In this document: positions 1,353 through 57,108 of the stretch, piece after piece
Numbering within the stretch: position 1 is the first letter of the stretch
Layout: each line of letters opens with the position of its first letter
Source of the DNA: Octopus vulgaris
Lineage: Eukaryota
NCBI GenBank assembly: GCA_951406725.2
Contig: OX597815.1
Coordinates: 68,386,001 to 68,450,000 of the forward strand
DNA: 64,000 bases
Reading direction: 5' to 3'
Program-made: the position numbers and the translations under genes
The notes under the pieces: model-generated
What the model was told of the DNA's origin: nothing
The model's input: the letters and a program-made list of their open reading frames with translations, nothing else
Databases searched by the model: none

Positions 1353-1439
1353 GACTTGAATCATCAGAATGCTAAAACGTCAAAATGCCACATCTGTCAT
1401 GATGGTAAGCTTCTAAATAAAGCAGAGAAACTTGCTGAG
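1353..1439 (+). CDS. Coiled-coil gene, exon 1 in window (87 nt): DLNHQNAKTSKCHICHDGKLLNKAEKLAE
   Basis: ttattcttccag| acceptor and GAG|gtaagc donor; open, phase 0/0; joins in frame to 5487. A competing donor (GATG|gtaagc) lies at 1404/1405. Confidence 0.65.
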
Positions 1440-2387
1440 GTAAGCTAGTGTTTTTCATTTTTCTCTTAAGTTATTAAATCTTACTTTACTCAGTGCAATT
1501 TGTAAATCTGCTCTACCTGTAAACCAGTATTAAACTGATCAGTACTACTTATTGAGCATATTTTTTAATGTTCTGTTTAAACTACGGTGGGTCAATACTT
1601 GCAAGAAACACATGAGCTAGGAGATTCCAGTGGAATGATGTACTGGAGAAGAATGATTGGAAACATTGGTTGATGCAGGAATTGATACACTAAGGGTGAT
1701 GAGAGATGGAGAGATGAGTGGGTGAGGAGTGCCTGAGTGGTGGTGGTACAACACCAGCTAGCTACAGGAAGTGGAGGCCATTAAAGCATGGGTTCCATTG
1801 GTCCTCTGACATCTTGAAATTTTTGCTGTAAATTACTGCTGATTATTAGAATTTTCTTTTATCTTACAACTCCACAAAACAAAACCCCTCAAAAAAAATT
1901 GGGATGCAGTATTAAGGGAGGTGGCTTTGTGTTAGGTGTTGAAAGACTACAGTATGATAGGACAAGAACGGGTATCTTGCTGTTGAGGAAATACATGGCT
2001 ACCCCAGCAGTAAAAGGAATAAGGATGGTGAAGATGAGGCATCAGAGCATACCCTCAAGGTACAAGAGAGAATGGGAACAGAGAATTGTGGATGGCTAGA
2101 TAGGTAGGTTCATGAGTGTGTGTGGAAAGGGAGTGATAGAATCATAAAGATAGGGATACAGGTGAACACAATTGCAAATCCAGGTCATACTACAGTTTTT
2201 TGTGATGTACGTTTTTTTTGTAAGTCACAAATCCTGTTTCTCTAATTGAACAAAAATAATCTCCACTATTCCTTCATGATTGTGTAGCAAAAAGGGTATG
2301 TAGTTGTAAAAATTCTTCTACAAATGGACTTCCCAACCATGCAAGCTTACAAAAGTGGATTGAGAACATTTCTCATTAGTGTTTTAA

Positions 2388-2602
2388 TGCTTTTGTTAAT
2401 GTATTTCTGTTGAAATAGACTGCCTTTGTTTTAATTAATTTTGAAAATAATAAATTTAGTAAAAATAACTTTGCCATATTAAACTGGTGTTTGAACAGAA
2501 ATTAATATGAAATTTTGGAGGAAGGTTTTAACTTGGAACACTTTAAAACAAGAACTTTGCATCATAGGATCCAAGGTAGTCTTGGCTAGAGTACTAAAAG
2601 GG
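2388..2602. mobile_element. piggyBac-like MITE family 2, degraded copy
   Basis: Interior aligns to 56385-56589 (tatttctgtt, ttaattt, ctggtgtttgaa, aaggttttaactt); ends aaaaggg|TTAA. Confidence 0.6.
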
Positions 2603-5486
2603 TTAAAATTTATCTTCCTGTTATAATATAATGTGAAACCAACATAATGTCTAGTTATATTTCAAATGAATACTGTACAGTTGTAAAATAAACTGGTGTT
2701 GATTTCACAATTGAGGTAACATTGGATAAGCTTTAGAGAAGATAATTCAGAGTAGAGGTTTTCTCCCAGCTAGACATCATGATTATCACTGAGCTTTTGG
2801 AGATGGGGGTTGGAAGTGTAACAAGATAGAATGTGCTGTTGTAAATATGGATAAGTAACACTCAGAAATCAATTTTGCATTTTTTTTTCTTTCATTTCTT
2901 TGTTGTTTTCCATTTTTCAACTCATAGATATACGTGGTTGTGAAAGTACTTTGTGCCATAATCATAAATCATAGATTCAAATGGTATTTATTGTCTAGTT
3001 TGGTAAACGAAGCCAAGTGCATTTTTTTCACTTTTCTTTTCCTTTTTTCCTTTTTAAATATCAACAGCAAAACTGCTTTCTGAAAAATATCTAAACCCCC
3101 ACACACACACACACACTATGATGTGAGATATTACTGCCATTATATAATGGATAATTGATTAACTGAATGAAAAATATCACTTTAATAAGATCAAAGATCG
3201 TAAAATCATTTTAGAGTGATTTTAAAAACTGTTTATACTGAGGAAAATATAAAGTATCTACTCGAGAAGTGTTTTTGAAATCTTATTTTCTAAATAGGTG
3301 ATAATGACAAAAGAGTTGCATTTATTGGACAGGAAAACCTCATAAGTTTAAGTGCCATTAAGGAAGTATTAAAATATTTGATTCTACATTTTCATTTGAG
3401 TGTCTAAGTTTTCAGGAACTAAGAACTGTTGGCAAACACAATCAGTTTAAAGAAAATTTATATCAATAAAGATATAATAATTTTTTTTAATTATGAGTTG
3501 ATAATTAATTATAAGTAGTGTATTGGCAGAATGCCAATATTTTGCAATGGTTCTTTATGTACTATGTTCAAATGCTGCCAATGTCAACTTTATCTTTCAT
3601 TCTCTTCTGGGATTGATTTTAATACTCCTATAATACACCAACCCATTCCAGTATGGAGAAAGGAGCTTTAAATAATAATGATGATAAAGCATCCTAGATG
3701 TAAATGGAATTTCAATTTTACAGAAATCATCTGATACTACCTGCCTTTGCTGGGACAGCTGCTGTTACACATAACCCTATTCTGGTGTGCCTGTAGTGCT
3801 TTGTTTGGCCATAAAAAAAACAACCAACTTAGACCATAAGCTGGATATCTTTTCAATCTGATCTGCTAGAAACAGCAACCGAACTTCCCTCCAGTCACAC
3901 CCTATTCTCTTAAGAAAGGAAGAATCCAATGGATACTGTAGTCCTATTGCAAAACCAGGTATCTGAGAAAACTGTAGATGGCCTTTGTTGACAAAAATTA
4001 GTCTATAAGAGAGTTTGGTAAGTTGACATCTGTAAGGAGTGGAGAATCTAATGATTCAAGCATTCTCCCTTTGTCTGAGAATGAAAATTATCATCATTGT
4101 TTTACTGTCCACATTTCTATGTTCGTATGGGTCAGACAGATTTTTCTGTGGCCAGATGCCCTTCCTGTCACTGACTCTCCCTTCTTTGCAAGTAAAGTAA
4201 TATTTCTCTCTAGCTGGACATATTTCCACTGAAGATTAGGACCAAAGGAAGCTGCTTCTATGATGGTGATGTTGATTTACAGTTATCACAAAACTTCAAT
4301 ACAAGAACGGGCACACACAGACACACACACATGACAGGCTTCTTTCAATTTCTGCATACCAATCCACTCACATGACTTTTGTTGGCCTGGGACTGTAGAC
4401 ATTTACCTAAAGGTATCCAAGTGTTGAAACCTTTATTTGAACAAACTCCATCTAATGCAATCAGGAAAACTGGATGGTAGATGATGATGATGAGGAAAGG
4501 TAAAAATGGCTGTGATGGGATTTGAACTCAGAAAGCAAGATACTACAATAAAAAACTGAATTGTTTGACTATGCCCTGTCTGCTACATGTATTATGTAAT
4601 CAATATCTGTTCAGATATAAGATTAACTGTAATTTGCACCTTGTGTAATGATGAACTAATTAATAGTCAACACTTCCTGTTGTAAAAAATGCAGCACTTG
4701 ATAAAAGAAAGATTAAGATTATGAAACCTAATTACATTATATGCATGTGCGTGCACTCTTTATCTCACTTTGATACAGATGATATCTTGATGATATTTCT
4801 AGCATAGTCATCTTTAAAAGTACAAAATGGGTTAAATTAAGAGCCTTCTTTGTAATTGCATTGTTGGATGTTAAGTAGAGCATCAGTTATAAAAACACCT
4901 GCTTTTCTGATAATTTGTAGAATTAATCATATTTGTTGGGGTGGGGGAATATTATCTAAACCATGTTTATGAGGGATGCATAAAATTTAAAGAAGAAAAA
5001 AATAATACAGAAATGTAAAATTCATATAGGAAAATATTTTAGAAACACAATAAATAATGCATGTAACAAAAATTTACTAGAATCGCCTACATAGAGCAGT
5101 GTATTTGTACTGGCAGTAATCTTCTGATGTCTCATTTGAGTTATGAAGGATTACATCAAATACATTTCTCACAAACATGTTTGTTGTCTTAAACTCTCAC
5201 AAAATACCTGCCTGTTTCTCTCTCTCTCTCTCTCTCTCTCAAAAACCAAATGCTATTTTATGAAACCAATGTCATGTCACAAGCAAAGGATATGAAATTT
5301 GATCAGATCATAATAAAGGTAGTTGTGATTTAGAAAGAGAAAAGGTTTGGAGGGGAAGGTACTAATGCAAACAGAAAGTTTTAAATCAAACCAGGATTAG
5401 CAACTTATGATGGTGGTGAGGGCTACTTGTGAGATCAGTGGTGTCTTCTCAATAAATCTTTATTATTATTTTTTTTTTCATTATAG

Positions 5487-5561
5487 GACATGAGCAAGAA
5501 ATATGAAGATGAGAATAAACTGAGGATACATTTGGAGAAAAAGCTTGATGAACAGCTGAAA
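5487..5561 (+). CDS. Coiled-coil gene exon 2 (75 nt): DMSKKYEDENKLRIHLEKKLDEQLK
   Basis: Poly-T tract with ttatag| acceptor, AAA|gtaagc donor, open E/K/L-rich frame, phase 0/0. Confidence 0.85.
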
Positions 5562-7014
5562 GTAAGCTGCAAATGTTATTGATTTATTTTTATATACATT
5601 GGAAATGTATATAAAACCTGAACTGGCAAGCTGCACTAGGTTCCAATCTGATTTGGCTTGGTTTCTACAGCTGGATGCCTTTCCTAATGCCAACCACTTT
5701 ACAGTGTGTGCTAGGTGCTTTTAACATGGCACTGGCACATTTATGTGGCACCAACACGAGTGTTTTTTTACATGTCACTGGCACAGGACTCTTGCAGGCC
5801 AATCCTCTTCACCAGGGAAATGTCTATCAATTCTGCTGTGGAGGATGGGCCTTCTTGAGTCAACTGGGACTTCAGCTTTTGCCTAATGGCTTGAACTGAT
5901 TCAATAACTTTCTAGTACTTAGAATACCAATACAGACAAGCTCACCCTTCCATTAAAGATAATATCAATGTTTAAACCTATGGTTTATGTGGTTGAAAAT
6001 TTTTGCATCATGAATTCACACCCACCATACTTCTATAGCCTTAGCATCTCCTTTTGATTGTTAGTATTTTTTTTTTAAAGAAATATTAATCAAAAGAGGA
6101 CAGCAGCTATTTTTAAACATCACTTTGTTGTTGTTTTCTCAGCAGCAGGCTGTTGAATGATATTTGCATTTGCTGAAAGCAAATCTCACTACCTTAGCTC
6201 TGATGTTTTGTCATTAGGCTATGTATATAACTATAAAAATATCATGTTCAAAGAACACAAAACAAAACCAAAAAGCGTATATACATATATGTATACAGCA
6301 TTTATGTGAAAAACTGTTGGAATATTTAAGTGGCTCCAAACATTTCAGATCACTCTGCTTATACGAAACTGTTAAACTAGCAGTGAACCACAAAAAAAAG
6401 TAGAGAAGAGCACTTTTAAGTTTAGTAATGGTAGGAAATTAGAAGATAACTTTGCATCTGAATTTACTGAAAGTTGTTTCCCAAGCCTTCTATGAAAGTA
6501 AAAATGACTATATTAATTTCTTTTAATATTGGGTATAGAAATTTATATAGCAGCTATTCATATATTTTATGTCACAAAGAATTTAATGCCACACTTTTTT
6601 GTTTTTTTACTTTTTTATATGTGTGTTGAGTGTGTTGTTTTATCAATAGCATAAAAACTGCTTACTGCTAACAAAGCAACTTGGTTGTGTTTTCAAACAA
6701 GAAAGCAAATTGACAGTAAATTTTGATTGAGAATGTACAGTAAAAATTATCTTCTATTGAAGGACAATCTCTACAATGTTTTGTTTTTTGGTTTATTTTT
6801 ATTTTGAAAAAAAAAAGGGGGCTATACAATTGTAAAAACCTTCATTTTTACTATTGGGAAGAGCATTTAGTCACTGTAATTGCCATCCTACTAAAAACCA
6901 TGTTGATTTAACCTGTGCAGCTATGCTTGTGCAGCGTGTGTGTATATATGTATGTTTGTGTGAATGAGATGTATGCAAATTATTCCTTTGGCTCAACTAT
7001 TTTTGTGTTTCTAG

Positions 7015-7119
7015 AAGCAGATGGCTAGTGACAAATGGTTATCTGATTCAACTGAGTCACTGAAGGATGAATTGGCTGAGAACCAGAAAACTATTGCACA
7101 CCAGGATAAATTAATAAAG
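7015..7119 (+). CDS. Coiled-coil gene exon 3 (105 nt): KQMASDKWLSDSTESLKDELAENQKTIAHQDKLIK
   Basis: ttttgtgtttctag| acceptor (tandem TAG-AAG-CAG), AAG|gtatat donor; overlaps ORF 7021..7209; phase 0/0. Confidence 0.85.
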
Positions 7120-7569
7120 GTATATTTTCATTGTGCTATTCCTTCTATATATTTATTATATTTATATGTAGGAATTCAACACTTGACCAGTCTAATGGTC
7201 AGTTGTTAAATTTCTTCCACATTAGTTTCATGAGTCTCATCATCCAATTTTTATAGTAGCATGAGTTGGGTAGTTCAACAGGAGATGGTGAGTCAGAGGA
7301 CTGCATCAAACTCTAATGTCTGCTTTGCCATGGTTTCTATGACAGGATGTTCTTCTTAATGCCAACCATTTTACAGAGTGTACTGGGTGCTTTTTAGTTC
7401 ATGTTGGCATTAGTGTGGTCTCTAAGTGACTGGCAAGACAAGACCCTACATATATATATCTGATATTTAGAGAAAACTCTTACCATTCTAAATTCTCTTT
7501 CTCATCTTATCAAATATTGCTATACAATATGCAAGCTTCCTCTAAGATCATCCTTTTCTGGTTTTCCTC

Positions 7570-7960
7570 TCATCATCATCATCATTTTAACATCCACTTT
7601 TCTTTCCTTGCAATTTGTTAAAGGAGATAAGTTTTCTACAGCTATACATCCTTCTTGTCACCAACCCTCACCTATTTGTAGGCAAGATAATATATCCCCC
7701 TTGATCAGATATATTTTTCATAGAAGACTAGAGCTGAACATCACCTGTATGACAAAGACCATCCTTTTCTGGATGTCACACACACACACACACACACACA
7801 TATGATTAACTTCTTCCAGTTACCATCTTTCAAATCCACTCATAAGGTTTTGACCAGTTTGACTTTATAGTAGAAGATACTTGCCCTGAGTACACACTGA
7901 GGGATTGAACCTGAGATAACATGGTCTGGAAACCAGCTTCTTATCCACATAGCCACACCT
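7570..7960 (-). mobile_element. SINE type B, reverse orientation (other reverse copies near 4085-4415, 22003-22355, 43700-44140, 52065-52318, 60115-60480)
   Basis: catcatcatcattttaacatccacttt tail, internal (CA)n, reverse head ending ccacatagccac. Confidence 0.75.
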
Positions 7961-8184
7961 ATTCCTATGTGGCACTCAGAAATGTTATTGTTCCTAATTA
8001 GGCAACAATAAAGCTTCTAACCTAGTTTCATTGTTATCCACATTATTTTTATCATCCTTCATTACAACATAAATGGTCTTGTTTTACTATTGTTCCTTTC
8101 CAATTGTCAAAGCATAATAAAAAATAAATGTAATTGTGCTGTCAAATTTCAAGTTAGATTTATTAGAATTAATATTAGTCAGAA

Positions 8185-8550
8185 AGGTGCAGGTGTAGCT
8201 GTGTGGTAAGAAGCTTGCTTCCCAACCACATGGTTCTGGGTTCAGTTCCACTGTATGACACTTCGAGCAAGTGTCTTCTACTATAGCCTAGGACCAACCT
8301 AAGCCATGTGAGTAGATTTGATAGACAGAAACTGAAAGAAGCCATTTGTGTTTGTCCCCCCCCCCCCATCACCATTTGACAACCAGTGTTGATGTGTTTA
8401 CATCCCCGTAACTTAGCAATTCAGCAAAAGAGACCAATATAATAAGTACTAGGCTGAAACAATAAGTTCTGGGGTCGATTTGTTTGACTAAAATCCTTCA
8501 AGATGGTGCTCCAGCATGACCACAGTCAAATGACTGAAATAAATAAAATA
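8185..8550 (+). mobile_element. SINE, tail type A, older copy
   Basis: Same head, core and tail as 47143-47540; a further partial copy follows at about 8640-8870. Confidence 0.85.
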
Positions 8551-9716
8551 ATAAATGAATATTTAACCTTTTAAGACTAATCCAATAGTGATCTGAGGAT
8601 CACAGGTTCAAATCCCTCTGCAGACATATGTACTCTTATAGGCGTAGGCATAGCTATGTGGATAAGAAGCTTGATTTGTAATTCTATAGTTTCACATTCA
8701 GTTCCACTGTGTGGCATCTTGGGCAAGTATCTTTTACTATTGCTACAGGTTGACCAATCCTTCATGGTTGAATTTGGTAGACAGAAACTCTGTGGAAGCT
8801 TAGTGTGTGTAATATATATATATGTGTGTGTCTGTGTTTGTCCACCACCACCACCATTTGACAACTGGAAAATGTGGTCTTTCTATTATCCTCTGAGTTT
8901 GCATGTGTATATGTGTGTGTGTGTACTACACACACACACACACATAATGTGGGACAACATGAGGTCCCCCCCACTCGACCCACCTTATTATCCACATCAC
9001 TCTCTTTTTCTCTTTCTCATTATCTCCTCCTACTTCAGTATCCCTTACCCTTGCTCCTGTCTCTTCCATTATTCTCCTCCCCCCATCACCATCAACACTG
9101 TCTTTTGTGTTACTGTTCACTACCACTCCCTCACAATATATCTGTTCCTCCCATTATACTTCTATCAGCACCTCACATAAAACAGCCACTCTATCTTATA
9201 TTCCCCTTCTCATTCTTACAAGGATGAAACTTATACAATATGCCAAACATGGACAGAGCATAGCTAGAACACATGGAATAGTAACTTTCTACTGATGTGG
9301 ATGTTAAAACTTCTGTTAAAAACCAGCTAGGAGCTACCCAACAGATAACTATGAAGTAAAACTCAGTTTCAGTTAATTGATCAACCCTCTAGATATAATG
9401 TGTGGATTATAGTTAGGGTTAGAATAAATCTGGCCTAGTTGACTTTGATGGTTGTTGGGAGGATCTGCCTGTGACATTACCATTACAGATTGAACTTCTT
9501 TGTAGAAGCCATTTCTGATTGTGTAAATGTAGTTTACTAGAATAAAACACTATTATATACTTGCATCAAGATCTGAATCTCTGGGTGAATTTTCTGGCCT
9601 GAACTTGTCATCAAATAATTGTTATTGCTCTTTTCTCAAACTGCTTGGGAATGACTTTGGAAAATCTGAATGGAGAATGGAAATACACTAACTATTCTTT
9701 TCCTTTTACATTTTAG

Positions 9717-9791
9717 GAATTATTAGAAAAAGCTGATAATCAAGAAATGACTTGGAAGAGAATTTCTGAAGATCTGGAATTAAAAATAAAG
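9717..9791 (+). CDS. Coiled-coil gene exon 4 (75 nt): ELLEKADNQEMTWKRISEDLELKIK
   Basis: ttccttttacattttag| acceptor, AAG|gtctgt donor; ends in the repeat's KIK motif. Confidence 0.88.
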
Positions 9792-10497
9792 GTCTGTATT
9801 TTCACTGGTTTAATAAATCATGCTTATGATAATCATCTGTATTGGATAAGCTTTTACATGCATTCATGGGCTTATGTAAATCTACAAACCAGCTCTTGAT
9901 TTATCTTTATGCTTACATCTTTATAGCTTCTTAAGATCTACAGTAATTACCTTACTCTAGGAAGATTTTTCCTAGAATGTTACTGAAATAGCAGTAAAGT
10001 GTTGGCTAACATAATTTTTATCCTCAGAATTCCAGCATCCGTTCTCATCATATATCCACTTCAACACTCTCCATCATCATCATCATCTCTCTTTCTCTCT
10101 CTCTCTCGCTGTGATCTGTGTGGTGTGCAACAAAAGGTGTTAACAATAGATTGAGACTACAAGAAAATACAGGCTTTCTTTGATAGAAGCACGAGTATCA
10201 AAATTGAAAGCCTTGTAAGTGGATTTAGAGGAAGGAAACTGAAAGAAGCTTGTTTGTGTGCATGCCTCCTTGTCCTGACATCACATAATAGTTATAAGAG
10301 TGTCACTGTCATACAAGCAGTGTCATTCAGTTCCAATATTCTCTGAAAACATGTCTAGCCATGGGGAAATATTACCTTTCTTGGAAACTGGTGAGTGTTG
10401 GTGACAAGAATGGTTTCCAGCTATTGACAGTCTATATTAATAAATTCCTTCCAATTTATGCAAACATGGAAATGTGGACATTAAAAGTGATGATGAT

Positions 10498-10895
10498 ATA
10501 TGGCTGTGTACTGAGAAACTTGCTTCCCAACCACATGATACAGGGTTCAGTCCCACTGCATGGTACCTTGTGCAAGTGTCTTGTACTATAGCCCTAGACC
10601 AACCAAAACTTTGTGATTGGATTTAGTAGATGGAAACTGAAAGAAGCCTGTTGTGTGTGTGTTTGTCTCTCCTTGCCTTGGCATCACACAATAGTTGTTA
10701 ATGAGTATGACAATCAAACAAGTAGCTTCATTCATTTCCAATATTCTGCAAGAACATCTGTGGCCAAGCAGGAAATAGTACCTTGCTTGGAAACATGAGG
10801 TTTGGTGTCAAGGAAGACATCCAACATCTGCCTCTGTTATACATTATCCAACCCATTCGAGCATGGAAAAGTGGACATCAAAATGATGATGCTGA
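10498..10895 (+). mobile_element. SINE with the same tRNA/CORE head but RTE-type tail (type B); other + copies near 10210-10497, 11588-11880, 26490-26775, 44718-45115, 60627-61015
   Basis: Head tggctgtgt...gggttcagtcccactgcatggtaccttg; tail gcatggaaaagtggacatcaaaatgatgatg matches the RTE 3' end. Confidence 0.8.
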
Positions 10896-11267
10896 TAACA
10901 TATAATCAATGATGCCTTGTTAGTTTCCATCTACCAAATTCACTCACAAGGCTTTGGTTGGCCTGGAGCTATAGCAGAAGATACTTGCTCAAGGTGACAC
11001 ACACGGAAATTGGACCCAAAGCTATGTTTGGGAAGTGAACTTCTTAGCTTCACAGCCACTCCTGTGCCAGTGTACATCACATCAGCTGTGTGATTTGAGG
11101 AAGCTTTGGCTGTTAATTCTAGAGACCCTAGTGGCTTTCTCATTTGAGACAAGATACAAACTGTCATCTCTTTTGTCAGTTAATTAATGACTTGCTGGTT
11201 TTTTGGTTGGGGGAAGGGTTTAAAAGTTGTATTTGTTTCTTATAATGTTTGCATTTGGTTTTGGTAG

Positions 11268-11393
11268 GTTTTGGAAGATGAATCAAATAAACTGAAAACT
11301 AAAGAAAAATCTAATGCTGAACTGAAGTTAAGCTTACTCCAACAGGTGAATACCTACCAAGAAGAAGTGAAGCAGCTGCGTAACCAGTTGCAG
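11268..11393 (+). CDS. Coiled-coil gene exon 5 (126 nt): VLEDESNKLKTKEKSNAELKLSLLQQVNTYQEEVKQLRNQLQ
   Basis: ttggttttggtag| acceptor, CAG|gtaatg donor; open heptad-rich frame; internal in-frame donor CAG|gtgaat at 11345/11346. Confidence 0.85.
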
Positions 11394-19883: not shown

Positions 19884-19949
19884 GCAGTGACTGACAAAAT
19901 TACAAGAGATGAGGAATCGGTTACATTAGTACTTGAAAACAAAATTGAG
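19884..19949 (+). CDS. Coiled-coil gene exon 6 (66 nt): AVTDKITRDEESVTLVLENKIE
   Basis: aatattttcag| acceptor, GAG|gtaaga donor; phase 0/0. Confidence 0.82.
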
Positions 19950-20282: not shown

Positions 20283-20366
20283 GAACTGAGAAAGCAATTA
20301 GAAAAGAAGAGTAATGAGAAGGAATTGTCAGATGAACGAGAAAAACAACATTTACGAAAAATCAAG
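20283..20366 (+). CDS. Coiled-coil gene exon 7 (84 nt): ELRKQLEKKSNEKELSDEREKQHLRKIK
   Basis: catttttttcag| acceptor, AAG|gtcaat donor; fits the 28-aa repeat consensus. Confidence 0.9.
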
Positions 20367-22436: not shown

Positions 22437-22511
22437 GAGCTGGAAAACATTCTTGATGATAAGGAGAATCTGAAAGCAAACAATGAACAGCGGCTTCTGA
22501 CAAAGATTAAG
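22437..22511 (+). CDS. Coiled-coil gene exon 8 (75 nt): ELENILDDKENLKANNEQRLLTKIK
   Basis: ccttag| acceptor, AAG|gtgagt donor; repeat consensus shortened by 3 aa. Confidence 0.92.
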
Positions 22512-26000: not shown

Positions 26001-26084
26001 GAACTAGAGAATCAGTTAGACCAAGAAAATGTGGACAATAAGTTACTGGAGAGCAAGGAACAGCGACTTCTAGAAGAACTAAAG
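26001..26084 (+). CDS. Coiled-coil gene exon 9 (84 nt): ELENQLDQENVDNKLLESKEQRLLEELK
   Basis: tgtttcacag| acceptor, AAG|gtaagc donor; inside ORF 25971..26180. Confidence 0.93.
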
Positions 26085-33437: not shown

Positions 33438-33521
33438 ACTTTAGGAACTGAGTTGGATCATGCTAATGCTGGTCGGAAGATGGTGGAAAGTAAAGAACAG
33501 CAACTCATTGATAAAATAAAA
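33438..33521 (+). CDS. Coiled-coil gene exon 10 (84 nt): TLGTELDHANAGRKMVESKEQQLIDKIK
   Basis: tttcctattgcag| acceptor, AAA|gtaagt donor; inside ORF 33432..33620. Confidence 0.93.
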
Positions 33522-36854: not shown

Positions 36855-36938
36855 AATTTGGAAAATCAGTTAGAAAGTGTAGAAAGTGGCAAAAGAACAC
36901 TGGAAAACAAAGAACAGCGTTTAACTGATAAGATAAAG
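36855..36938 (+). CDS. Coiled-coil gene exon 11 (84 nt): NLENQLESVESGKRTLENKEQRLTDKIK
   Basis: ttcttctctttcag| acceptor, AAG|gtaaga donor. Confidence 0.93.
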
Positions 36939-39447: not shown

Positions 39448-39531
39448 GCATATGAGCATGATCTAGAACAGGAAAAAATTGGTAGGAAACTTGCTGAGAA
39501 TAAAGAGAAGTGTTTACAAGAATCTGTTAAG
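39448..39531 (+). CDS. Coiled-coil gene exon 12 (84 nt): AYEHDLEQEKIGRKLAENKEKCLQESVK
   Basis: ttcttttacag| acceptor, AAG|gtaaat donor. Confidence 0.92.
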
Positions 39532-41336: not shown

Positions 41337-41420
41337 TCTCTTGAGAACAAGTTGGATGATATTACATCATCTAAAAAACAATTTGAGAACAAAGATCGTC
41401 GCAACTTGGAGAAGATCAAG
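41337..41420 (+). CDS. Coiled-coil gene exon 13 (84 nt): SLENKLDDITSSKKQFENKDRRNLEKIK
   Basis: atatttttgtag| acceptor, AAG|gtaaag donor. Confidence 0.92.
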
Positions 41421-41829: not shown

Positions 41830-41913
41830 CAACTGGAGACTCAATTAGAAAAAGAGTCATCAGACAGAAAGTTAGCTGAAAATAAGGATCGACGAAATCA
41901 AGAAAGAATTCGG
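41830..41913 (+). CDS. Coiled-coil gene exon 14 (84 nt): QLETQLEKESSDRKLAENKDRRNQERIR
   Basis: ttttgtttccatag| acceptor, CGG|gtacgt donor; shares ENKDRRN with the preceding exon. Confidence 0.92.
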
Positions 41914-43235: not shown

Positions 43236-43319
43236 GATCTTGAGAATCAGCTAGAGAAAGAAAGCTCTTGTAAGTCATCACTTGAAAATAAAGAGCGGCG
43301 TTTGTTGGACAAAGTTAAA
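43236..43319 (+). CDS. Coiled-coil gene exon 15 (84 nt): DLENQLEKESSCKSSLENKERRLLDKVK
   Basis: tggtttcacag| acceptor, AAA|gtaagt donor; inside ORF 43197..43391. Confidence 0.93.
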
Positions 43320-45540: not shown

Positions 45541-45770
45541 TTAAATACTTTGTACCTTACTTTTTGAAGATATAGTTTCTTATAAATAATTTCTTTTTGG
45601 AAATATTCAATTAAGATGACCATTCTTTTTCTTTATATGAGGCGGGCAAAAAAATACAGAAAGCAGAGATGAATTTGAAAATTGAGATAGGTGTAGTCGT
45701 AATTCCAAAAAGCTACAACAAAAATTATGATTTCCATTTATCACTGTTATAAACTGTTTTTGTATTTTAG

Positions 45771-45854
45771 GGTTTAGAGAGCCAAGTTTCAAATGATGAA
45801 ATGACAAAGCATCAACTGGAAAATAGAGTTGCTCAGCTTCAAGAGAGGATTAAA
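45771..45854 (+). CDS. Coiled-coil gene exon 16 (84 nt): GLESQVSNDEMTKHQLENRVAQLQERIK
   Basis: ttttgtattttag| acceptor, AAA|gtaagt donor. Confidence 0.92.
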
Positions 45855-47009: not shown

Positions 47010-47084
47010 GATTTAGAACAACAGATGGACAAGAAAGACAAACAAGCTGATGCAACTGAAAAGCAATTGGAGGAGAAAATAAAG
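47010..47084 (+). CDS. Coiled-coil gene exon 17 (75 nt): DLEQQMDKKDKQADATEKQLEEKIK
   Basis: attttattttag| acceptor, AAG|gtatgt donor. Confidence 0.92.
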
Positions 47085-47142
47085 GTATGTGTTTATCTAT
47101 TCTTGTATTTTTATTAGTTAAATTAAGGTAACCTAACCAAAT

Positions 47143-47540
47143 AGGCGCAGGAGTGGCTGTGTGGTAAGTAGCTTGCTAACCAACCACATGGTTCCGGGTT
47201 CAGTCCCACTGCGTGGCATCTTGGGCAAGTGTCTTCTGCTATAGCCCCAGGCCGACCAATGCCTTGTGAGTGGATTTGGTAGACGGAAACTGAAAGAACC
47301 CTGTCGTATATATGTATATATATATATGTGTTTGTTTGTGTGTCTGTGTTTGTCCCCCTAGCATTGCTTGACAACCTATGCTGGTGTGTTTACATCCCCG
47401 TCACTTAGCGGTTCGGCAAAAAAGAGACCGATAGAATAAGTACTGGGCTTACAAAGAATAACTTCCGGGGTCGAGTTGCTCGATTAAAGGCGGTGCTCCA
47501 GCATGGCCGCAGTCAAATGACTGAAACAAGTAAAAGAGAA
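47143..47540 (+). mobile_element. tRNA-headed CORE-type SINE, tail type A, young copy
   Basis: A-box tggctgtgtgg, B-box ggttcagtccc, CORE-like cttgggcaagtg, internal (TA/TG)n, tail ggtgctccagcatggccgcagtcaaatgactgaaacaagtaaaagag; near-identical to 57800-58209. Confidence 0.9.
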
Positions 47541-47773
47541 ATACATATCTTCTAGATTGTGATTTGATCTAAAGATTTTCTGGGGTTTTACTGCTTTATA
47601 GGTGCAGGTGTGGCTGTATGGTTGAAAAGTTTGGTTCTGTACCACATGGTCGCAGGATCAATCTCACTGTGTGGCACCATGGACAAGTGTTATCTATAAT
47701 GGCCCTCAGCCGATCAAAGCCTTGTGAAAGGATTGGTAGACAGAAACTGAAAGAAACTTCTTGTGTGCATACA

Positions 47774-48592
47774 CAGGGTGTTTAGTCTAAATTTGATGAT
47801 TTTTTTATGTCTCCTTTCTTCAGGAACAGCTTGATGTATTGGTGAACAGTGTTGGAGAGCATGAATATTAAAGTTGTAGTTTAGAAAAAGTTAGATGATA
47901 TGGAAGACTGGAAGCCATCTGAATATTGGAAAAGAGTTCCCTGTATCATGGTGATTTCTGTTGGCATCAAAATGCCAATGTCATGACTGCTACTCAATGC
48001 TCTGAAAACACTGTAAAGGCTGTAAGACATGACATAGACATCATGAAAACCAAGTTACCCCAAATTGTGATGGTCTTTGGATGTGCCTGTAATGAGATGG
48101 TGTCATGTGTCCCACATCTTTGAACAGGACCGCGACTCAATTCTGTTGGAAGGCCATATTTGTGGCAGTAGGATTCAGCTTCTGGCCATAACTCTAGAAA
48201 GAGTCAGAAGTGGTTTTTGGAGAATTTCTACTACTTCACCACCCCCAATTTCTGGCCTCCTAATTCCCCTGATTGTAATCCAATGGATTACTGTGTGGGG
48301 TCAGGTGGAGAAAGACACCAACCACTCTGCCTGCAACTCCAAGTCCAAACTGGTGACCAAGTAAGATCAAGGAAGTGTTCATAGATTTTCCCAAAGACAC
48401 AGCAAGGAACACATGCTGCAAGTTCCAGAGCTGTCTTGAGGAGACTATGGTGGAAGCTGAGGGCAACTACTTTTCTCCTAGCCATAATCTAGTTGAGATT
48501 TTTTTAAAACTTTTTTAAATACTTTGACTTTTAAATAGGAAATTGTTTTCCTTTACATTTTATGCAAACTGTCAAATTTAGCCTGAATACCC

Positions 48593-48594
<2 letters not shown>
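47774..48594 (+). mobile_element. Tc1/mariner superfamily element, maT (DD37D)-like, internally deleted
   Basis: TIRs cagggtgtttagtctaaatttga / tcaaatttagcctgaataccctg; remnant FWPPNSPDCNPMDYCV near 48249-48298 resembles the WPPxSPDLNPxDY motif. Confidence 0.82.
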
Positions 48595-48632
<38 letters not shown>

Positions 48633-48636
<4 letters not shown>

Positions 48637-48966
48637 AGGCGCGTGGCTCAGTGGTTAGAGCGTCGAGCTTACGATCGTGAGGTTGTGAGCTCGAGTCCCG
48701 GACCGGGCTGCGTGTTGTGTTCTTGAGCAAGACACTTTATTTCACGTTGCTCCAGTTCACTCAGCTGTAGAAATGAGTTGCAACGTCACAGGTGCTAAGC
48801 TGTATCGGCCCTTGCCTTTCCCTTGGACAACATCGGTGATGTGGAGAGGGGAGGCCGGTATGCATGGGCGACTGCTGGTCTTCCATGAAACAACCTTGCC
48901 CAGACTTGTGCCTCAGAGAGTAACTCTCTAGGTGCAAACCCATGGTCAGTGTCTGACCGAAGGGGG

Positions 48967-48970
<4 letters not shown>
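48633..48970 (+). mobile_element. Distinct young tRNA-headed CORE-type SINE embedded in (TA)n
   Basis: A-box tggctcagtgg, B-box-like gctcgagtcc, CORE-like gttgtgttcttgagcaagacacttt...cactcagctgtagaaatgagt; CpG-rich; flanked by (TA)n on both sides; degraded relative near 54030-54135. Confidence 0.85.
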
Positions 48971-49002
<32 letters not shown>

Positions 49003-49006
<4 letters not shown>

Positions 49007-50226
49007 GTCATCCCATAAATAATACGGTTTTTTTCAATTGCATGAACTTTAGTTCATTTGGAGTGGAGACAGGATAAACTACCTGCATCAACTTGCTATA
49101 AACGCGGGTATTAATTTTACCATAATCTTATTCCCAGTGCAAGTTTTGAAGAGTGCAGTTCAATTTTAATAGCTATTTTTTCAAAGCTTTAATGGAAATG
49201 ACAAAGGAGCATATTCGGTATATTTTGCTTTATGAGTTTAATAAAGGCAACAATGCAACAAAAAGTGACAGGAATATTAATGCAGTATATGGGGATCGGA
49301 CAATAGGCATAAGCCAGTGTCAACGATGGTTCCAGAAATTTCAGGCCAGAAACTACAGCCTAGAAGACAAGTCTCCTCCTGGAAGAACTATAGAGCTCAA
49401 CGAGGATGTCCTGAAAACCCTGGTGGAACAAAATCCAATTGTAACTGTTGAAGTAGCAGAGAAGTTTAGATTTGGTCATTCAATCATTCGTCGACATCTG
49501 TGTGTCATTGGAAAAGTCAGAAAATTGGGTCAGTGGGTTCATTAAACTTTCTGAATCTAATCGTGTGCTCTTCTTTGCTGTCACATCTCACAAATGAACC
49601 TTTTTTGGACCAAATAGTGACTGGTGATGAGAAATGGGTTCTCTATAAAAATGTCAAGGAGAAACACCAACACTCCAGGTTAAAGAAAGTCTTCACCCAC
49701 ATAAGATGTTGTTATCTGTTTGGTGGGATATGAAAGATTCAGTCCACTTTGAACTTTTAAACCCAAACCAAAGGATAAAGATCTACTGCAAGCAACTTGA
49801 GCAGCTTAAGTCAGTGCTTGAAGGAAAACGGTTATCTTTGGTTTCAAGACGAAATAATGCTCGGCCTCATACAGCAAGGATGACATTCCAAAGGCTGGAG
49901 CAGTTTGAATGGGAAACAATGCTCCAACCATCATATTTGCCAGACATTGCCCCACCTGATTATCATTTATTCTGCAGTCTTCAAAATCATTTGGATGGTA
50001 AATAAAATATGAATTCTGTAGGCGAGGTTAGAACAGTACTGGAGAAGTATTTTTTATCACAGACTGAATTTCGGAAGAGAGGCCTTGCAAGCCTACCAGA
50101 TAGATGGAAGAGCATTGTTGAAAATAAAAGAGAGTATATTTTAGATTTAAAAAAGAACTTTGTTTATCTTAATTTTGAAAAATAAAATAAGTGTTAAAAA
50201 ACAGCATTATTTATGGGATGACCCAA
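49003..50226 (+). mobile_element. Mariner (DD34D-type) DNA transposon, near full length, defective transposase
   Basis: TIRs ttgggtcatcccataaataat / attatttatgggatgacccaa with TA on both sides; ORFs 49153..49545 (HIRYILLYEF, QRWFQKF, LGQWV), IVTGDEKW, LLSVWWD, NNARPH, YLPDIAPPDYHLF; frameshifts and deletions. Confidence 0.96.
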
Positions 50227-52966
50227 TATATAGATTGTGTGTGTCCTTGTTACTCATTTCCAATATTCTGCAAAAACTATGTCTGGTGACTATGAAATAT
50301 TACCTTGCTTGGAAAAGTGTGGGGATTGGTGATATGAAGGTCATCCAACTAGCCTTAGAAAATCTACCTCAATAAAATAACCATCCAACTCAGTCCAACT
50401 TGGAAAAGGGACATTAACATCATGATGATTATATAATTTCTTAGTTGATTGGTTAGTCTCAACAATAAGGGAAATAAATGCAGTGCAGCAATCTTTTGTT
50501 TCTGTTAATGAATGGAAAGGAATAAAAATTTTTACCTGTATGTATTAAAATTTTTCTTTTACATTCATATGTTGCTACGACTTTAATTTAATTGGATTTC
50601 ATCAGTACAATGTTTAATACAGAGTGTGACAAAAAAAAAACTCTACCTATTACTATTACCAGCAAACACAGGGTGTGTACCATTCCAAACCATAATAACA
50701 ACTGGAAGCAAAACAACAAAATATTAACTACATAAAAGCACCATTATCACTTGTCTAACTTCACTTGTGGCAGAGTGCAATAGAAAAACCTCTGATCTTT
50801 CTGTTACATTTTGATTCTGTGTAACTTGTCAGATTTATACTTTGTAAATATTAACTGTTGACCTATGGTCATACTAATATTAATTGCTAGACGCTGGTCA
50901 AGGAAGTCTTTATGTTGTATTTTTGCTTCTTTGATAGACTTGAAAGTCTATTATTCTGTTGAAGATTACTGGTGACTTTATAGATGAAAAAATCTGCATG
51001 GTTTTCTTAGAAGGAATAAACTTGATTTGCTGTTGCTTTCTCCTAGTCCATAAAAAAAACTTGTACTCATCTCTGAAAGATCATAAAACAATGAGCTGTA
51101 CTTACCTTCAAGGTACCTATTACCAATTAGGCAGATGGGCCATTGTGAGTTAAAATGTCTTAGCTAAAGGATACATTCCCATACAAACCATTGACTTTCC
51201 AATTAATTTCCCAACATTCACACAATTTCAGTTTTAATATCTAAATGAATTAAAATCCCAATTGGCATAGTCTTCCTGCTTAAGTGTTGAAATCACTGTC
51301 TTGAAATTACTGACTGATAAAAGATCAATAGTTTGAACAAGATGATTGACTGGTTGATTGATTAGTTTTAGTGAACTTTAGTTGGTCTAATAATCAAATT
51401 GCAGGAAACCACATTCACTGGTGATACTTTAGCTAATGTCAATGTACTTCACCAGAAATACATGTCAGATGAATAGAAAGTATTATTGGGAATGCATCGA
51501 GTTGATTAGTTTGGTTAATTCAGATAGGTTGATATTTGAAATCCTTTTAGCTAACCATATTGTTGTAGATTTTATCCTTTTACTTGTTACAGTCATTAGA
51601 CTGCAGCCATGCTAGGGCCCCACCTTAAAGTATTTTAGTCAAATAAGTCAACACCAATACTTTTTTTTTTTAAGTTTGGTACTTATTTCATTAGTTTCTT
51701 TTGCCAAACCATTGTTATGGGAATGTAAACAAACCAACATCAGTTGTCAAGTGGAGGGGAACAAACAGTTACATGCCCATAATATGCTTCCACATAGTTT
51801 CAATCTACCAAATTTCTTCACAAGGCATCAGTCGCCCAGATCTATAGTAGAAGACACTTGCTCAAGGTGCTGTGTAGTAGGATTAAACCCAAAACCACAT
51901 GGTGGCAAAGCAAGCTTCTTAACCACACAGCCATGCCTGCACCTACTGAAGAATCTCCTTTATAAATTCCATTTAACTATTGATAAGCTGAAAGCATAAC
52001 TCAAAGTATTTGATAGGGATCTTTGTGTTAAGTTTTTGATAGGTGATGCAGGCCTGTCTTCTCTCAGCATCATTTTAACATCCACTTTTCCATTTTTGCA
52101 TGGATTAGATAGAACTTGTTGAGTTGGATTTTCTATGGCCAGATGTCCTTCCTGTTTCCAAATAAGGTAATATTTCCCTGTTACCAGACATGTTTTCATG
52201 GAAGATTGGAAATGGATCCAGCTTGCATGATGGTGACACTTGCTTACAACTATCACACAATGTCAAGGCAGAGAGACAGTAACGTGCATGTCCGTGCACA
52301 CACACACAGCCATGCCTAATGACACTTTAGGCTTTGCTAAGTTTACCTTGAGGTCTCTCTAGCCTATGTTTTGTTTCCATGTCTGGAATTTCTTCTCTAA
52401 TTCTTTTACAGATTCATCTACAATAACTAAGCCATCACCATATAATAATTTCCATGAGCAACTCCTCTGTTATGGCTTAGAATACTATACTGAGCAGAAA
52501 AGGGTTGAGGACTGATCCTTGATGGTCTCCGTACCTGAACACTAAACTTGTTGCTGAATGTGGATGTATGGTTTTGCAAAAATGTAGCATCAATTCTTTT
52601 TACAAAAGCAACTGTGCAAGAATCTATTTTCAGTGGTGGTTGACTTGATACAGATAATAAAGCATGCATCAATGTTTCATTGATTTTGAGGGAGGTGGGG
52701 TATCTTTTGTGGACTGAAGAGCACTTAAGTGCCACAGAGACTTCTAGATTTATAGGTCATTCCCTTGTGTATGTGTAGAAATATCTGCACATCATGTGTG
52801 TGTGTATCACAACCACACACACACACTCACACAGCATGCTATATTGTGAGCTTGTATAAATAAAATCAAAATTTTTTTTAGAATTTTGCAGCTATTTCTT
52901 TATTGAGTTATTGTTCCTAAGAAGTTTTGGATTGAATTATTGTCATTTCTGTATTTTATTATCAAG

Positions 52967-53050
52967 CTACTTAAAGATGAAGTGCGGTCTTATTCATCGA
53001 AGGAAAAACTTGGAGAATCCCATGAGAAACATCTGAAATCAAGGATAGAG
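52967..53050 (+). CDS. Coiled-coil gene exon 18 (84 nt, probable GC donor): LLKDEVRSYSSKEKLGESHEKHLKSRIE
   Basis: gtattttattatcaag| acceptor; exactly 84 nt open in repeat register ending GAG|gctagt (non-canonical GC donor). Confidence 0.7.
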
Positions 53051-54349
53051 GCTAGTAGTCTTTATATATTATTGATTTATTGACTGGCTTTTGTTTGGGA
53101 TTTAATTTTTGAAAAATACTTTGATGATGTAGACGTTTTTGTTTACTGTTACATATGGATGTTAATTTTTCACCCTTTTTAGCTCAGACTCAACTCAATA
53201 TTAGCCATGTGATAAAACATATTTATCTTTTAGCTTTGATTGTCAGTCACATTAAAATTATTTATTATTTATGTATGAAGAATCTCTACTTTTCACTCCA
53301 TCTATTTTCTTTTTTAAATATTGCAGACTTCGTGGATATGTTTGTTTTTATTTTATATTTTCATTGTTTTATGCCATTGTGGTATGAAATCAAAGTATCT
53401 AAAATAGATGTCTGCTGCTGCCAAAATACTTTTCATTTTAACAATGAAGTATTTTGATTGTTGTTGTGGAAACAAGAAAAAAAAAGAAACTTAGTTTTAA
53501 AAATTATTTTATAAAAAAAAATTCTTTAATTACAGAAGGATGTTTAAGTGAGCTTTGCTATGCATTAACCAAGGATTTTCTGTTAATTTTATTTGCATTA
53601 ATTGTCAGAGTTCTTTAAGCTATAGATTTCCTTGTGAATTCTGACAGGTGATTTTGCTCCTGAGTTTTAATGTGAACTTTGATATTTTTAGCAAATTTGC
53701 TTGTTAACACATGCCACGTAATATACATACTTACATAGCAGTAAATGCTATTATCTTGCTTTGTTGACATTTTGAATTTTGGAATGATTTCAGTTAAATA
53801 TTTTATTAAAAAATTAAATTAGCTAAGAGATATTTGGTTTGTTAAAACTGACTGAAAATTCATAAATTGCCCGAAATCTTGGTAAAGTGCTCTTGAAGTT
53901 TAATCAATGAAAATCTAAAATCAAATAGATTTTCTCAACAGAGTTTGAAACTAGAGCCAGCATGGAGATTATTTCTGATGATTTTGATAAGCCCCAATGT
54001 GTGTGTGCACGCACATACGTGTACTCGTCCATGGCCTATTGGTTAGCATGTTGCAGTCACAATTGCAAGATCATGGTTTTGATACCCATACCAGGCGATG
54101 CATTGTGTTCTTGAGCAAAACACTTCATTTCAAATTGTTCTGCAATCACCTCAACATCTGATGTGTGGCACCTGTATAGGGAATGTCAATTTGATGGAGA
54201 GAGTGAACAAATGCACAGGACAAACATTTGGTCACTATAAACAAATTATCTTTGCATATTGTTCAGCAACAAGTTGTTAAACCACCATCTGTCATTTATG
54301 ACAGGAGAGTCCACTGTGTAGTTTGTTCAGTTAGGGGATATAAAATTTC

Positions 54350-54800
54350 TCAGCATTGCTGATACACATCTTCCATCCATGCCATTTTAAAACTCTTGGA
54401 TAGTGCATCTACTGTATTCTAACAATTGGTTGATGTAGTGTTTTGCTGGTCTTTTTTCCGTTTAAGATGAACAGGTTGCCACCGAAGAACTTCAGCCACT
54501 AACTCCATTTTTTGACACCAGCTGTGTCCAATAAATTACAACCTGTGCTTTCATATTGTTTCTGTGATATATGGGATGTCTTGGTGTAGTTCTTTATTAG
54601 TCGTATTGATGCAATGATAAAGTTAGAGCAGCACAGACCAACCTGATGTATGTGCCAGTTAGTGTTTTCTTCATGAGAGCTATTAGTGTCCATAATAGAT
54701 TCAGCTGCAGCTCTAAAGAAGTCTATTTTAGTTTTCACAGAAGATTAAATTTCCATATCCTATCCAAACAGTTAAGCATTCCCCATGCTTTACTAATATA
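54350..54800 (-). mobile_element. Degraded LINE 3' fragment resembling the 42-43 kb family
   Basis: ORF 54499..54738 begins KTKIDFFRAAAESI, resembling the RTE KxxLFRATVESILLYG motif; RPAKxYI-like C-terminal remnant. Confidence 0.55.
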
Positions 54801-56384
54801 TATATATATATTTATTTAAGGAACTTGTTATTTCATTTGAATGTTTCTGTGTTAATAATTTTACATCAAAGACTTTCTTTTTGTTTAAATTTTGTTTGTA
54901 CAATTTTCCAATCGGCAATAGCATGTTACATACAATATGTCCTGCCAGTCGTGCATATGGAGATGGTGGTGGAGGTGGTGGGGGTTACCCCCCCCCCCCC
55001 CGACCTGGCTTTCTTATTAAAAGTCAAAAATTATTTTGAACCCCATGTATCTGCCCACAAAATAATGGACACAGCAATATACAGTATCATCTTATTGTCC
55101 ACTTATTTGAGAGAAAACATTGGCCACATTTTAGACTACATCCATATTTAAAAAATTAACAAAAAAATGATCCAGCCTTCTTTTATCAGTTGAGTTAACA
55201 TGTAACTCTAACTTCCCTCTCTCTCATTTACTATTCTGGTCAGTATCTGCTGATGATATACCACCTCATCTTTATTCGCTCAATAATGCATCAACCTGCT
55301 CCTGTTATCTCCACTACACCCCTACCATCTCACTCTCTAATGAAGTAATTGTTCAGTTATTTATTTTTCTGCATTTGTATATTCTGTGGGAACTTCTGAT
55401 AGCATAGGTTAGGTTAGTATTATTTTGATTAGTGTATACTCTGTTTGAGCAACTTTTACTTCAATAATTTCTGTAGATGAATTGTAGTGATAAAGAGACA
55501 AAGTAATGTTATTATATGATTAGTGATGGGTTAATTCATAGAAAATATATGAACAAGTATTGCAGGACTGACTGTATGTAAAACTGGTATCATTTTTGCA
55601 AATGCTTAGGAGCTGAGTACATTTAAGCAAGAACTTTGGCATTGAATCACATTGCTTGGCATGGGACAGTATACAAAATATTACTTGTTAATTTTATTAA
55701 CTTTTGGAAGAGGAAAACTTTGGCTGTATTGTAGTTGATAGCTATGTGTTATTCAGTAACTATATGTTGTTCATTAGCTACATGTTATTCTATGATGTTA
55801 ATTGCCACAGTAGTATAACTGCTTTTAACTAACCTATACATCATAGCTTTGTAACAATGATGATATGGACAATAGTTTTAACAAACTTTCACGTTCCAGT
55901 GAAAGTCTGGCAGTTGTTTGTTCCTAGTAACTTATTGGTCTCACCCCTTCAAAGCAAGGAGCCAAAAAGCTTTTAGAAATGTAAATAAGGTTCACTCTAC
56001 ACTCATGTAAACATCTTTGTGACAGAGGACAATATATTTAGAAATTTTTTAATATTTTCCAAATATTTTTCTGAAATCATTATTACTTAACTTCTTTAAC
56101 AATAAGGAGTTACTACAAATTTGCTCATTAATTTAGCAGCAAATATACTTTAATATATTTTAAGATGTTGATAAGGGCTGTCACAGTTGGCTACTGTCAG
56201 TATGTTACATAAAATTCTGTGTGAATTATAATTAAATTTTCACTAAAATTCAACAAGAAATATCTGATAATTATTCAAAATTCATCAATAAAGCAATAAA
56301 CATAAGTAGGATTGTTTTGGTTTCTATCTACAGTATGTCTGTCAATATAAATTGAAGATCTGCAAATGTTCCCTTTTCTGTTAA

Positions 56385-56589
56385 CCCTTTTGTTATCATA
56401 TTTCTGTTAGAACACATTGCATTTGTTTTTATTAATTTGGAAGATATTAAAGAATTTAGGACAATAGCTTGGCTATTATTAAGCTGGTGGTTTGAAACAA
56501 AATTCTCAAAAAATTTTGATGGCAAGGTTTAAACTTACGTAACTTTAAAGTAGAAAGTAGTGGTCTCAAGTGTGTTGGTATCAAAAGGG
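56385..56589. mobile_element. TTAA-flanked piggyBac-like MITE, family 2
   Basis: TTAA|cccttttg ... caaaaggg|TTAA; related older copy at about 2388-2602. Confidence 0.72.
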
Positions 56590-57024
56590 TTAATATAAAC
56601 ATTCTTTATTTCTAAGTTTCATTGCCTTTATCAACTACAGATAGAAACACAAAAAATTTGATAGCTAAGGGAGCCTAAAACTCAGCTGTAAAATATTAGC
56701 AATTCTTAAAATTTTTATTATTTTTTTAACAGTAATTTTCTACAGCAAATTGATCAGTATTGTCTATAGATTTGTAATGTCTCTCTGAAGCTTTTAGGTT
56801 TGTAAACACTTCAGTGCCAGTGGTCATCTTTTCAGCCAAGGGAATCCATCAGCTATATGTACACCTCTCTCTTTGTTGGTTTTGTAAATAATTCAGATGT
56901 TAAATGTTGCATTAACTTGCAGTAGTTGGTGCAAAGTATTTGACTCACAATGTGTAAATACTCAATGGGCATATGTTATAGCAAATAGACTTGATAAAAC
57001 AAAATAATGTGTGATTTCTCACAG

Positions 57025-57108
57025 AACAAAGAACTTGAAATTGAAAGATTGAAAGCTGAAAAAACTGATGTTAGGAAAAGAGACAAGTTGTGCCGAGAAA
57101 AGATCATG
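57025..57108 (+). CDS. Coiled-coil gene exon 19 (84 nt): NKELEIERLKAEKTDVRKRDKLCREKIM
   Basis: gatttctcacag| acceptor, ATG|gtgagt donor. Confidence 0.88.

Follow-up and report, generated by a model that had tools for sequence, protein, structure and literature searches.

A 15-unit array of one-exon coiled-coil repeats in the citron kinase gene of octopods

Nineteen citron kinase exons in the window

The 64,000-nucleotide stretch of Octopus vulgaris DNA analysed here (contig OX597815.1, positions 68,386,001 to 68,450,000; hereafter the window) is AT-rich and of animal type, and it carries 19 small forward-strand exons of the gene for citron Rho-interacting kinase (CIT/CRIK, Sticky in Drosophila), a kinase of cell division. 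These exons encode the central coiled coil of the protein. Thirteen of them, together with two exons beyond the window, form an array of 15 units with 13 x 28 + 2 x 25 = 414 amino acids (aa). Eighteen exons were found by scans for AG...GT exons of coil-like composition and by a repeat profile, and the nineteenth, 9717-9791, by mapping a homolog. Joined by their coordinates, they gave 1608 nucleotides (nt) and 536 aa with 0 stops and 0 prolines; exon sizes ranged from 66 to 126 nt, 11 of the 19 were exactly 84 nt, and all were phase 0-0. An earlier note on this DNA had described 19 tiny exons of these sizes that join into such an open frame, and its figures were reproduced exactly. Donors were GT in 18 exons and GC in one (53050, in the exon with an AAG acceptor at 52967). 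The features are as follows, with signed positions for those outside the window.

1353..1439, +, citron kinase exon, 29 aa, pre-array coil, CxxC motif, not a repeat copy (protein models, coordinate join, profile score)
5487..5561, +, citron kinase exon, 25 aa, pre-array coil, weak repeat likeness (protein models, coordinate join, profile score)
7015..7119, +, citron kinase exon, 35 aa, pre-array coil (protein models, coordinate join, profile score)
9717..9791, +, citron kinase exon, 25 aa, pre-array coil; missing in O. bimaculoides isoform X2 (homolog mapping)
11268..11393, +, citron kinase exon, 42 aa, pre-array coil; alignable with part of Mya citron (homology, protein model)
19884..19949, +, citron kinase exon, 22 aa, pre-array coil (protein models, coordinate join)
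20283..20366, +, array unit 1, 28 aa (profile score, protein models)
22437..22511, +, array unit 2, 25 aa, 3 residues short (protein models, profile score)
26001..26084, +, array unit 3, 28 aa, first of eight contiguous core units (protein models, unit alignment)
33438..33521, +, array unit 4, 28 aa (protein models, unit alignment)
36855..36938, +, array unit 5, 28 aa (protein models, unit alignment)
39448..39531, +, array unit 6, 28 aa (protein models, unit alignment)
41337..41420, +, array unit 7, 28 aa (protein models, unit alignment)
41830..41913, +, array unit 8, 28 aa (protein models, unit alignment)
43236..43319, +, array unit 9, 28 aa (protein models, unit alignment)
45771..45854, +, array unit 10, 28 aa, last core unit (protein models, unit alignment)
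47010..47084, +, array unit 11, 25 aa; 3' end joined to unit 12 in RNA contigs (models, RNA contigs)
52967..53050, +, array unit 12, 28 aa; AAG acceptor, GC donor (splice sites, RNA contigs, protein model)
57025..57108, +, array unit 13, 28 aa; cassette exon, both included and skipped (RNA contigs, isoforms, models)
+74343-74426 and +74714-74797, +, array units 14 and 15, downstream of the window (protein mapping)
from about -77274, kinase exons, upstream of the window (protein mapping)
-2330 to -2205, 42-aa (six-heptad) cassette exon L004, upstream of the window (isoform comparison)
about +117000 to +137000, C1-PH-CNH exons, downstream of the window (protein mapping)

Identity of the gene

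With the coil as query, an O. vulgaris 'citron rho-interacting kinase-like' protein (2431 aa) and an Argonauta citron were retrieved, with O. sinensis and O. bimaculoides isoforms in the same cluster; exon 11268-11393 led to an O. bimaculoides kinase fragment. All 19 exons corresponded to residues 653-1188 of O. sinensis citron X1, with 2 differences in 536 residues, and the O. vulgaris protein model P0002 contained 18 of the 19. An exon scan of the 100 kilobases (kb) of upstream flank, where the earlier note had proposed to look for an N-terminal domain, showed that an exon for the kinase N-lobe lies about 77 kb upstream of the window. P0002 mapped exon by exon over 200 kb of flanks, and O. 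sinensis X1 was laid out as 57 internal exons over more than 210 kb, each junction translating 6/6 and the first 68 residues being unplaced. In the models of four species, the coil exons were in frame with the kinase and C1-PH-CNH exons.

The Pfam order in the octopus protein was kinase, Pkinase_C, C1, PH and CNH. Specifically, the kinase domain (Pkinase, E 2.8e-59, plus Pkinase_C) had its glycine loop, catalytic lysine, HRD and DFG intact in P0002, and the central coil, recognised by its heptad pattern, was followed in citron order by C1 (1871-1920), PH (1951-2063; 25.0 bits at a cut-off of 25.1) and CNH (2099-2353). The signature families of MRCK (KELK, DMPK_coil and PBD) and ROCK (Rho_Binding) gave no match at E<=0.1 in P0002 and P0003 or at E<=0.01 in P0010. 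In a quick kinase tree without bootstrap (37 rows, 19 of them in the citron clade; outgroup rows assigned to type by Rho_Binding, KELK and DMPK_coil matches), the octopod rows grouped with the citrons of molluscs and others and separately from ROCK and MRCK (SH-like approximate likelihood ratio test, SH-aLRT, 100). The octopod kinase lay on a long stem (0.51 changes per column), which is a lead only in a quick tree with odd zero tip lengths. The end of the coil (O. sinensis 1690-1765), presumably the Rho-binding segment of citron, aligned with all eight named outgroup citrons at 34-50 bits.

The gene had been called hidden and was not recognised as a named one in the earlier note; octopus citron kinase is already annotated in O. 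vulgaris (CAI9717546.1), O. sinensis (XP_036355921.1), Argonauta (GAB1597252.1) and O. bimaculoides. Variable citron length in protostomes is likewise in print (bioRxiv 2022.03.11.483953). The note had named as its own refutation a match to a known gene with this exon layout already documented. Such an identity was found, whereas searches of the literature on citron in octopus, cephalopods or molluscs and on coiled-coil exon duplication turned up no account of the array of one exon per four heptads, of its seed or of its skippable units; a comparison of citron lengths in Supplementary Figure S4 of bioRxiv 2022.03.11.483953 may include octopus. The available main text of that preprint has 0 mentions of octopus, mollusc or exon. 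In O. bimaculoides, citron is annotated as two pieces (P0004-P0017; 1505-1561 aa N-terminal and 1121-1165 aa C-terminal), the second of which starts with 207-251 foreign residues, presumably helitron-like; this is likely an assembly or annotation break.

The 15-unit exon array

The scoring reference for the array was a profile of the eight core units (units 3-10), with a background mean of -8.8 and maximum of 20.5. Exons from 20283 on scored 18.6-39.5, and the first six exons of the window (1353-19949) scored -11 to 17. In correction of the earlier note, the repeat holds from 20283 on, and the first six are no clear copies of it; in extent, 13 units stand in the window and two further ones lie past its end. 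Exons 9717-19949 aligned with a segment of Mya citron. In the profile scan by which the exons had been found, two 84-nt exons outside the training set scored 35.9 and 22.1, above the top minus-strand score of 14.2, and among the 13 84-nt units (11 in the window, 2 downstream) identity was 29% in register versus 11-13% after shifts of one to three heptads, so the repeat signal is beyond chance. Lags 28 and 56 were the top autocorrelation lags of the octopod citron coil.

Alignment of the units bore out the core positions 2/6/9/13/16/20/23/27 of the earlier note. Positions 2, 6, 16, 23 and 27 were mostly hydrophobic, and two core a positions were charged, a13 being K/R in 11/13 units and a20 E/D in 11/13. 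The earlier picture of a coiled-coil rod whose four-heptad repeat has charged residues in its core and occupies an exon of its own is supported.

The array lies inside a run of 24 consecutive phase-0 introns; of the 34 introns elsewhere in the gene, 16 have this phase, among them 9 of the 12 in the downstream coil. At the DNA level, the units were 32-60% identical. The intron flanks (180 nt on each side of 13 units) showed no trace of recent duplication except for 90 nt upstream of units 1 and 3. This divergence in protein and DNA, and introns without trace, argue that the duplications are old. The two similar intron segments (about 20130-20250 and about 25820-25910; 71% identity over 90 nt, same orientation) are both within interspersed repeats and could be a duplication relic or two separate insertions. 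A whole-genome search (2.8 Gb) with one unit gave at least three matches at E<=10, all in the window; with the first kinase exon, only the exon itself was among the matches listed. The array likely arose by repeated duplication of one exon, so that the lineage-specific serial exon duplication proposed earlier is likely, its restriction holding for the sampled citrons.

Comparison with other citrons

Outgroups were drawn from 150 proteins (a search of 50%-identity representatives). The kinase-to-C1 span was 1460 aa in O. sinensis and Argonauta versus 732-1153 aa (median 966) in 14 other citrons (14 of the 16 non-octopod rows of the citron clade, a Lottia fragment and P0028 being left out). The rod of octopod citron thus exceeds those of other animals by about half. 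Meanwhile, the z-score of the lag-28 autocorrelation was 12.6-15.2 in three octopods versus 1.1-3.8 in the eight named outgroup citrons. The distance between conserved anchors flanking the array was 723-728 aa in octopods, 284-289 aa in Lingula, Saccoglossus, Antedon and frog, and 401-434 aa in Mya, Branchiostoma and Owenia, with P0051 left out, a poor C anchor in Patiria (isoform X3) and a weak N anchor in Mya. The excess span appears to be due largely to the regular one-exon-per-28-residue array, which has no outgroup counterpart.

Between Octopus and Argonauta, all 13 Argonauta 28-mers best matched their positional partner (19-27 of 28 residues identical). Identity was 83.8% in the array and 79.9% and 82.5% in the flanking coil, and unit number and order were identical in three Octopus species and Argonauta. 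The one-to-one matching and the conservation like that of the flanking coil indicate that the array existed before these two genera diverged and has been retained. Among the matches listed, array relatives (candidates scored: 2/7972 and 1/7993) came from Octopus and Argonauta only, a weak result that gives no date.

In four of eight outgroups, the best match to the repeat profile fell at one aligned place (Lingula 753, Owenia 755, frog 767 and P0051 755). This place, close to where the first coil segment (CC1) ends, is likely the single-copy seed of the array.

Predicted coiled-coil structure

In the eight core units, the in-register cross-chain g-e', g-a' and a-e' pairs included 42 attractive and 4 repulsive ones. 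Position-preserving shuffles gave a net count of 9.9 +/- 8.4, and 0 of 2000 reached the observed net of 38. After a shift of 28 residues, the attractive and repulsive counts were 38/7; after one, two and three heptads, they were 27/29, 32/24 and 24/27, respectively. Because the charge pairs attract in register and are about even at heptad shifts, the array is predicted to form a parallel in-register two-chain coiled coil with a 28-residue code. The helix rise in a coil is 0.1485 nm per residue, which gives an array of at most 61.5 nm and a unit of 4.2 nm.

Exon 1353-1439 (+) carries a CxxC plus His within the coil (CHICH; CHLCH in Argonauta), and the outgroup alignment showed no CxxC there. 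In a two-chain coil, two such motifs would be brought side by side; in the Rad50 zinc hook, CxxC motifs from two chains are paired.

Expression and splicing

RNA contigs, which drop rare forms, were examined on 52850-57690, where four junctions were covered; the RNA nature of the runs was taken from splice-site joints and empty introns. Unit 12 was joined to unit 13 at the GC donor in contigs of three runs from three studies. Loose contig ends, their letters matched by eye, placed unit 11 before unit 12 (X1, X8), unit 14 straight after unit 12, a skip of unit 13 (X5, X8), and unit 14 after unit 13 (X5). The RNA junction check suggested in the earlier note thus turned up four junctions among units 11-14, and unit 13 is both included and skipped in RNA. 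The GC donor of exon 52967-53050, whose acceptor is AAG, serves both outcomes. The DNA-like run X17 showed no such joint; with its patchy coverage it is a weak control. Two contigs of 3437 and 3429 nt ended unbranched at unit 12 and, judged by length only, suffice to reach the coding start, which hints that units 1-12 are mostly constitutive. On 33300-53200, no exon joints were among the RNA contig matches listed, where interspersed repeats dominate.

In three Octopus species, NCBI isoforms without unit 13 are listed; further exons that NCBI isoforms omit are unit 15, exon 9717 (25 aa) and the 42-aa exon just upstream of the window. All skippable exons are whole phase-0 modules, and the 28- and 42-aa ones preserve the heptad register. 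O. sinensis X1 and Argonauta have the 42-aa exon; neither O. vulgaris model contains it, nor do O. sinensis X3 and O. bimaculoides X5. Its equivalence to the vertebrate S699 cassette was not supported, since alignments put this exon elsewhere.

The introns also contain transposable elements. A non-LTR retrotransposon copy at 26481-30190 (-), in the intron after unit 3, encodes RVT_1 (E 6.8e-27) and a PHD-like finger in an open frame of 517 aa; a PHD-like fragment also occurs at 14267-14782. A broken mariner element at 48587-50235 (+) has a Mos1-type helix-turn-helix and partial DDE pieces in separate frames.

Interpretation of the array

The array, likely duplicated from one exon and predicted to fold as an in-register coil, is probably a spacer of up to about 60 nm. 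A copied 84-nt phase-0 exon would keep both the reading frame and the heptad register, so such copies could accumulate, and would have done so before the Octopus-Argonauta split from a segment held once in other citrons near the end of CC1. In human citron, CC1 comprises residues 420-785, with KIF14 bound by 420-585 and MKLP1 by 586-785 (PMC13282566; both bindings also in PMC4821246); in the fly, CC1 goes to midbody microtubules, CC2a is recruited via anillin and CC2b holds the Rho site (PMC6743463). The seed, at about frog 767-790, would lie at the CC1/CC2 junction if frog S702 corresponds to human S699. At that position the array would put extra length between the anchors on the microtubule side and those on the cortex side, so that the kinase and CC1, which binds the kinesins, would stand farther from CC2, which binds anillin and Rho, and from the C1-PH-CNH end. 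The kinase might thereby bridge a wider gap between midbody microtubules and cell cortex, and skipping one unit would shorten the rod by about 4 nm with the register intact. For scale, the citron coil is given as 145.9 nm in deuterostomes (bioRxiv 2022.03.11.483953).

Several points weigh against this reading. Only 17 of 32 core-unit a positions are hydrophobic, so the coil may be weak or bent, and the 60 nm is an upper bound because the MRCK1 coil measured 55 nm at a predicted 78 nm (bioRxiv 2022.03.11.483953). Best profile matches lie elsewhere in four of the eight outgroups, and the shuffle control for the seed matches does not preserve heptads; the frog-to-human numbering (frog S702 as human S699) is presumed. 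Citron coil length is reported to be more variable in protostomes (bioRxiv 2022.03.11.483953) and the Mya, Owenia and Branchiostoma citrons have their own coil extensions, so coil length may be loosely constrained. Set against Mya citron, the octopod rod gains 324 aa net instead of 414-440, and a few loose look-alikes in the Mya segment point to a possibly older origin for some of the array. No squid, cuttlefish or Nautilus sequence was among the matches listed, and the comparison is one of Octopus and Argonauta. In the RNA, joint 53048/57023 has two shared letters and a short side of 28 letters (30 with the shared ones), below the 31-letter bar. Midbody-ring localisation and binding of KIF14, MKLP1 and anillin are known from human and fly citron (PMC13282566, PMC6743463, PMC4821246), from which the function suggested for the octopod array is drawn.

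The variable protostome length (bioRxiv 2022.03.11.483953) and the independent extensions in Mya, Owenia and Branchiostoma would also fit a tolerated accretion, in which frame- and register-neutral 84-nt exons were duplicated in long repeat-rich introns and kept for foldability, the total length being irrelevant; citron coil introns favour phase 0 anyway (9/12 in the downstream coil). We regard this as somewhat unlikely, however, given the constant unit number, order and anchor distance (723-728 aa) in three Octopus species and Argonauta, an array conserved to the same degree as its flanking coil, and units that mostly appear constitutive. The position of the seed suggests a further alternative, since frog 767-790 would, in the inferred numbering, be the end of the MKLP1-binding human fragment 586-785: each unit might copy the tail of that part of CC1 and so multiply binding sites for centralspindlin or another partner. 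Outward columns are indeed partly conserved (position 7 E/D in 11/13 units, position 18 N in 7/13), but the units are only 29% identical, the best-kept columns are the core and core-flanking a, d, e and g, and the seed is some 65 residues downstream of the Aurora B-type site by which MKLP1 binding is controlled. A multiplied platform is accordingly quite unlikely.

The earlier note had considered a filament or tether protein possible and had compared its periodicity with that of Myosin_tail_1 (PF01576) rods. The 28-residue period with a charged core agrees with a stand-alone protein of myosin-tail type, and language-model look-alikes included Myosin_tail_1 clusters (0.93-0.94, 115-144 of 256 features shared), which is a lead only. 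The exons are, however, the middle of a kinase gene, in frame with kinase and C1-PH-CNH in four species' models; the 3437- and 3429-nt contigs ending at exon 52967 are, by length only, long enough for the kinase coding start; and Myosin_tail_1 gave no Pfam match at E<=0.1 in the octopus protein. As the main product, such a protein is refuted, and apart from a kinase-less transcript starting inside the coil it is hardly conceivable.

The spacer reading has a bolder extension, in which octopods made citron into a ruler longer by half, assembled from 4-nm exon modules and adjusted by skipping in tissues such as neural progenitors, and reset the microtubule-cortex distance. This we consider unlikely, with skipping seen for only 2 of the 15 units. 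Conserved coil length is the basis of the ruler idea for DMPK-family kinases; octopod citron length is constant among four species, not relative to the outgroups. Genes with one exon per repeat are a familiar kind. The octopod citron offers a natural large length change made from register-neutral 28-residue modules, together with natural isoforms of plus or minus one unit, and the modules are ready inserts for asking, in 4-nm steps, whether citron length sets midbody geometry. Citron is a human microcephaly (MCPH) gene, and an altered citron in a large-brained invertebrate is worth a look, although nothing here links the array to brain size. Full-length CRIK was uncharacterised as of a 2022 preprint (bioRxiv 2022.03.11.483953).

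Relation to known systems

Other citrons (CIT/CRIK, Sticky) share with the octopod protein the domain order, the citron clade and the conserved anchors flanking the array, and in human CIT, too, CC1 contains a segment specific to an isoform (PMC13282566). They differ in the kinase-to-C1 span (median 966 aa in 14 citrons versus 1460 aa) and in having no regular array. In the ROCK and MRCK 'molecular rulers', too, a long parallel coil separates a DMPK-family kinase from a membrane-binding module, and their coil length is reported to be conserved over 650 million years (PMC5082667; bioRxiv 2022.03.11.483953). In contrast, octopod citron length jumped by about half in exon-sized steps, and at least two units are skippable.

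Myosin II and paramyosin rods have a four-heptad period. The octopod array shares this 28-residue periodicity and the charged core residues; unlike those rods, octopod citron has no Pfam tail match and no motor domain, and the likely seed of its repeat belongs to citron. Titin PEVK has one motif per exon. Its motifs are similarly of 26-28 residues, and heavy alternative splicing sets its length (PMC7691732). However, PEVK is proline-rich and disordered, whereas the octopod array is free of proline, predicted to form a coil and apparently mostly constitutive.

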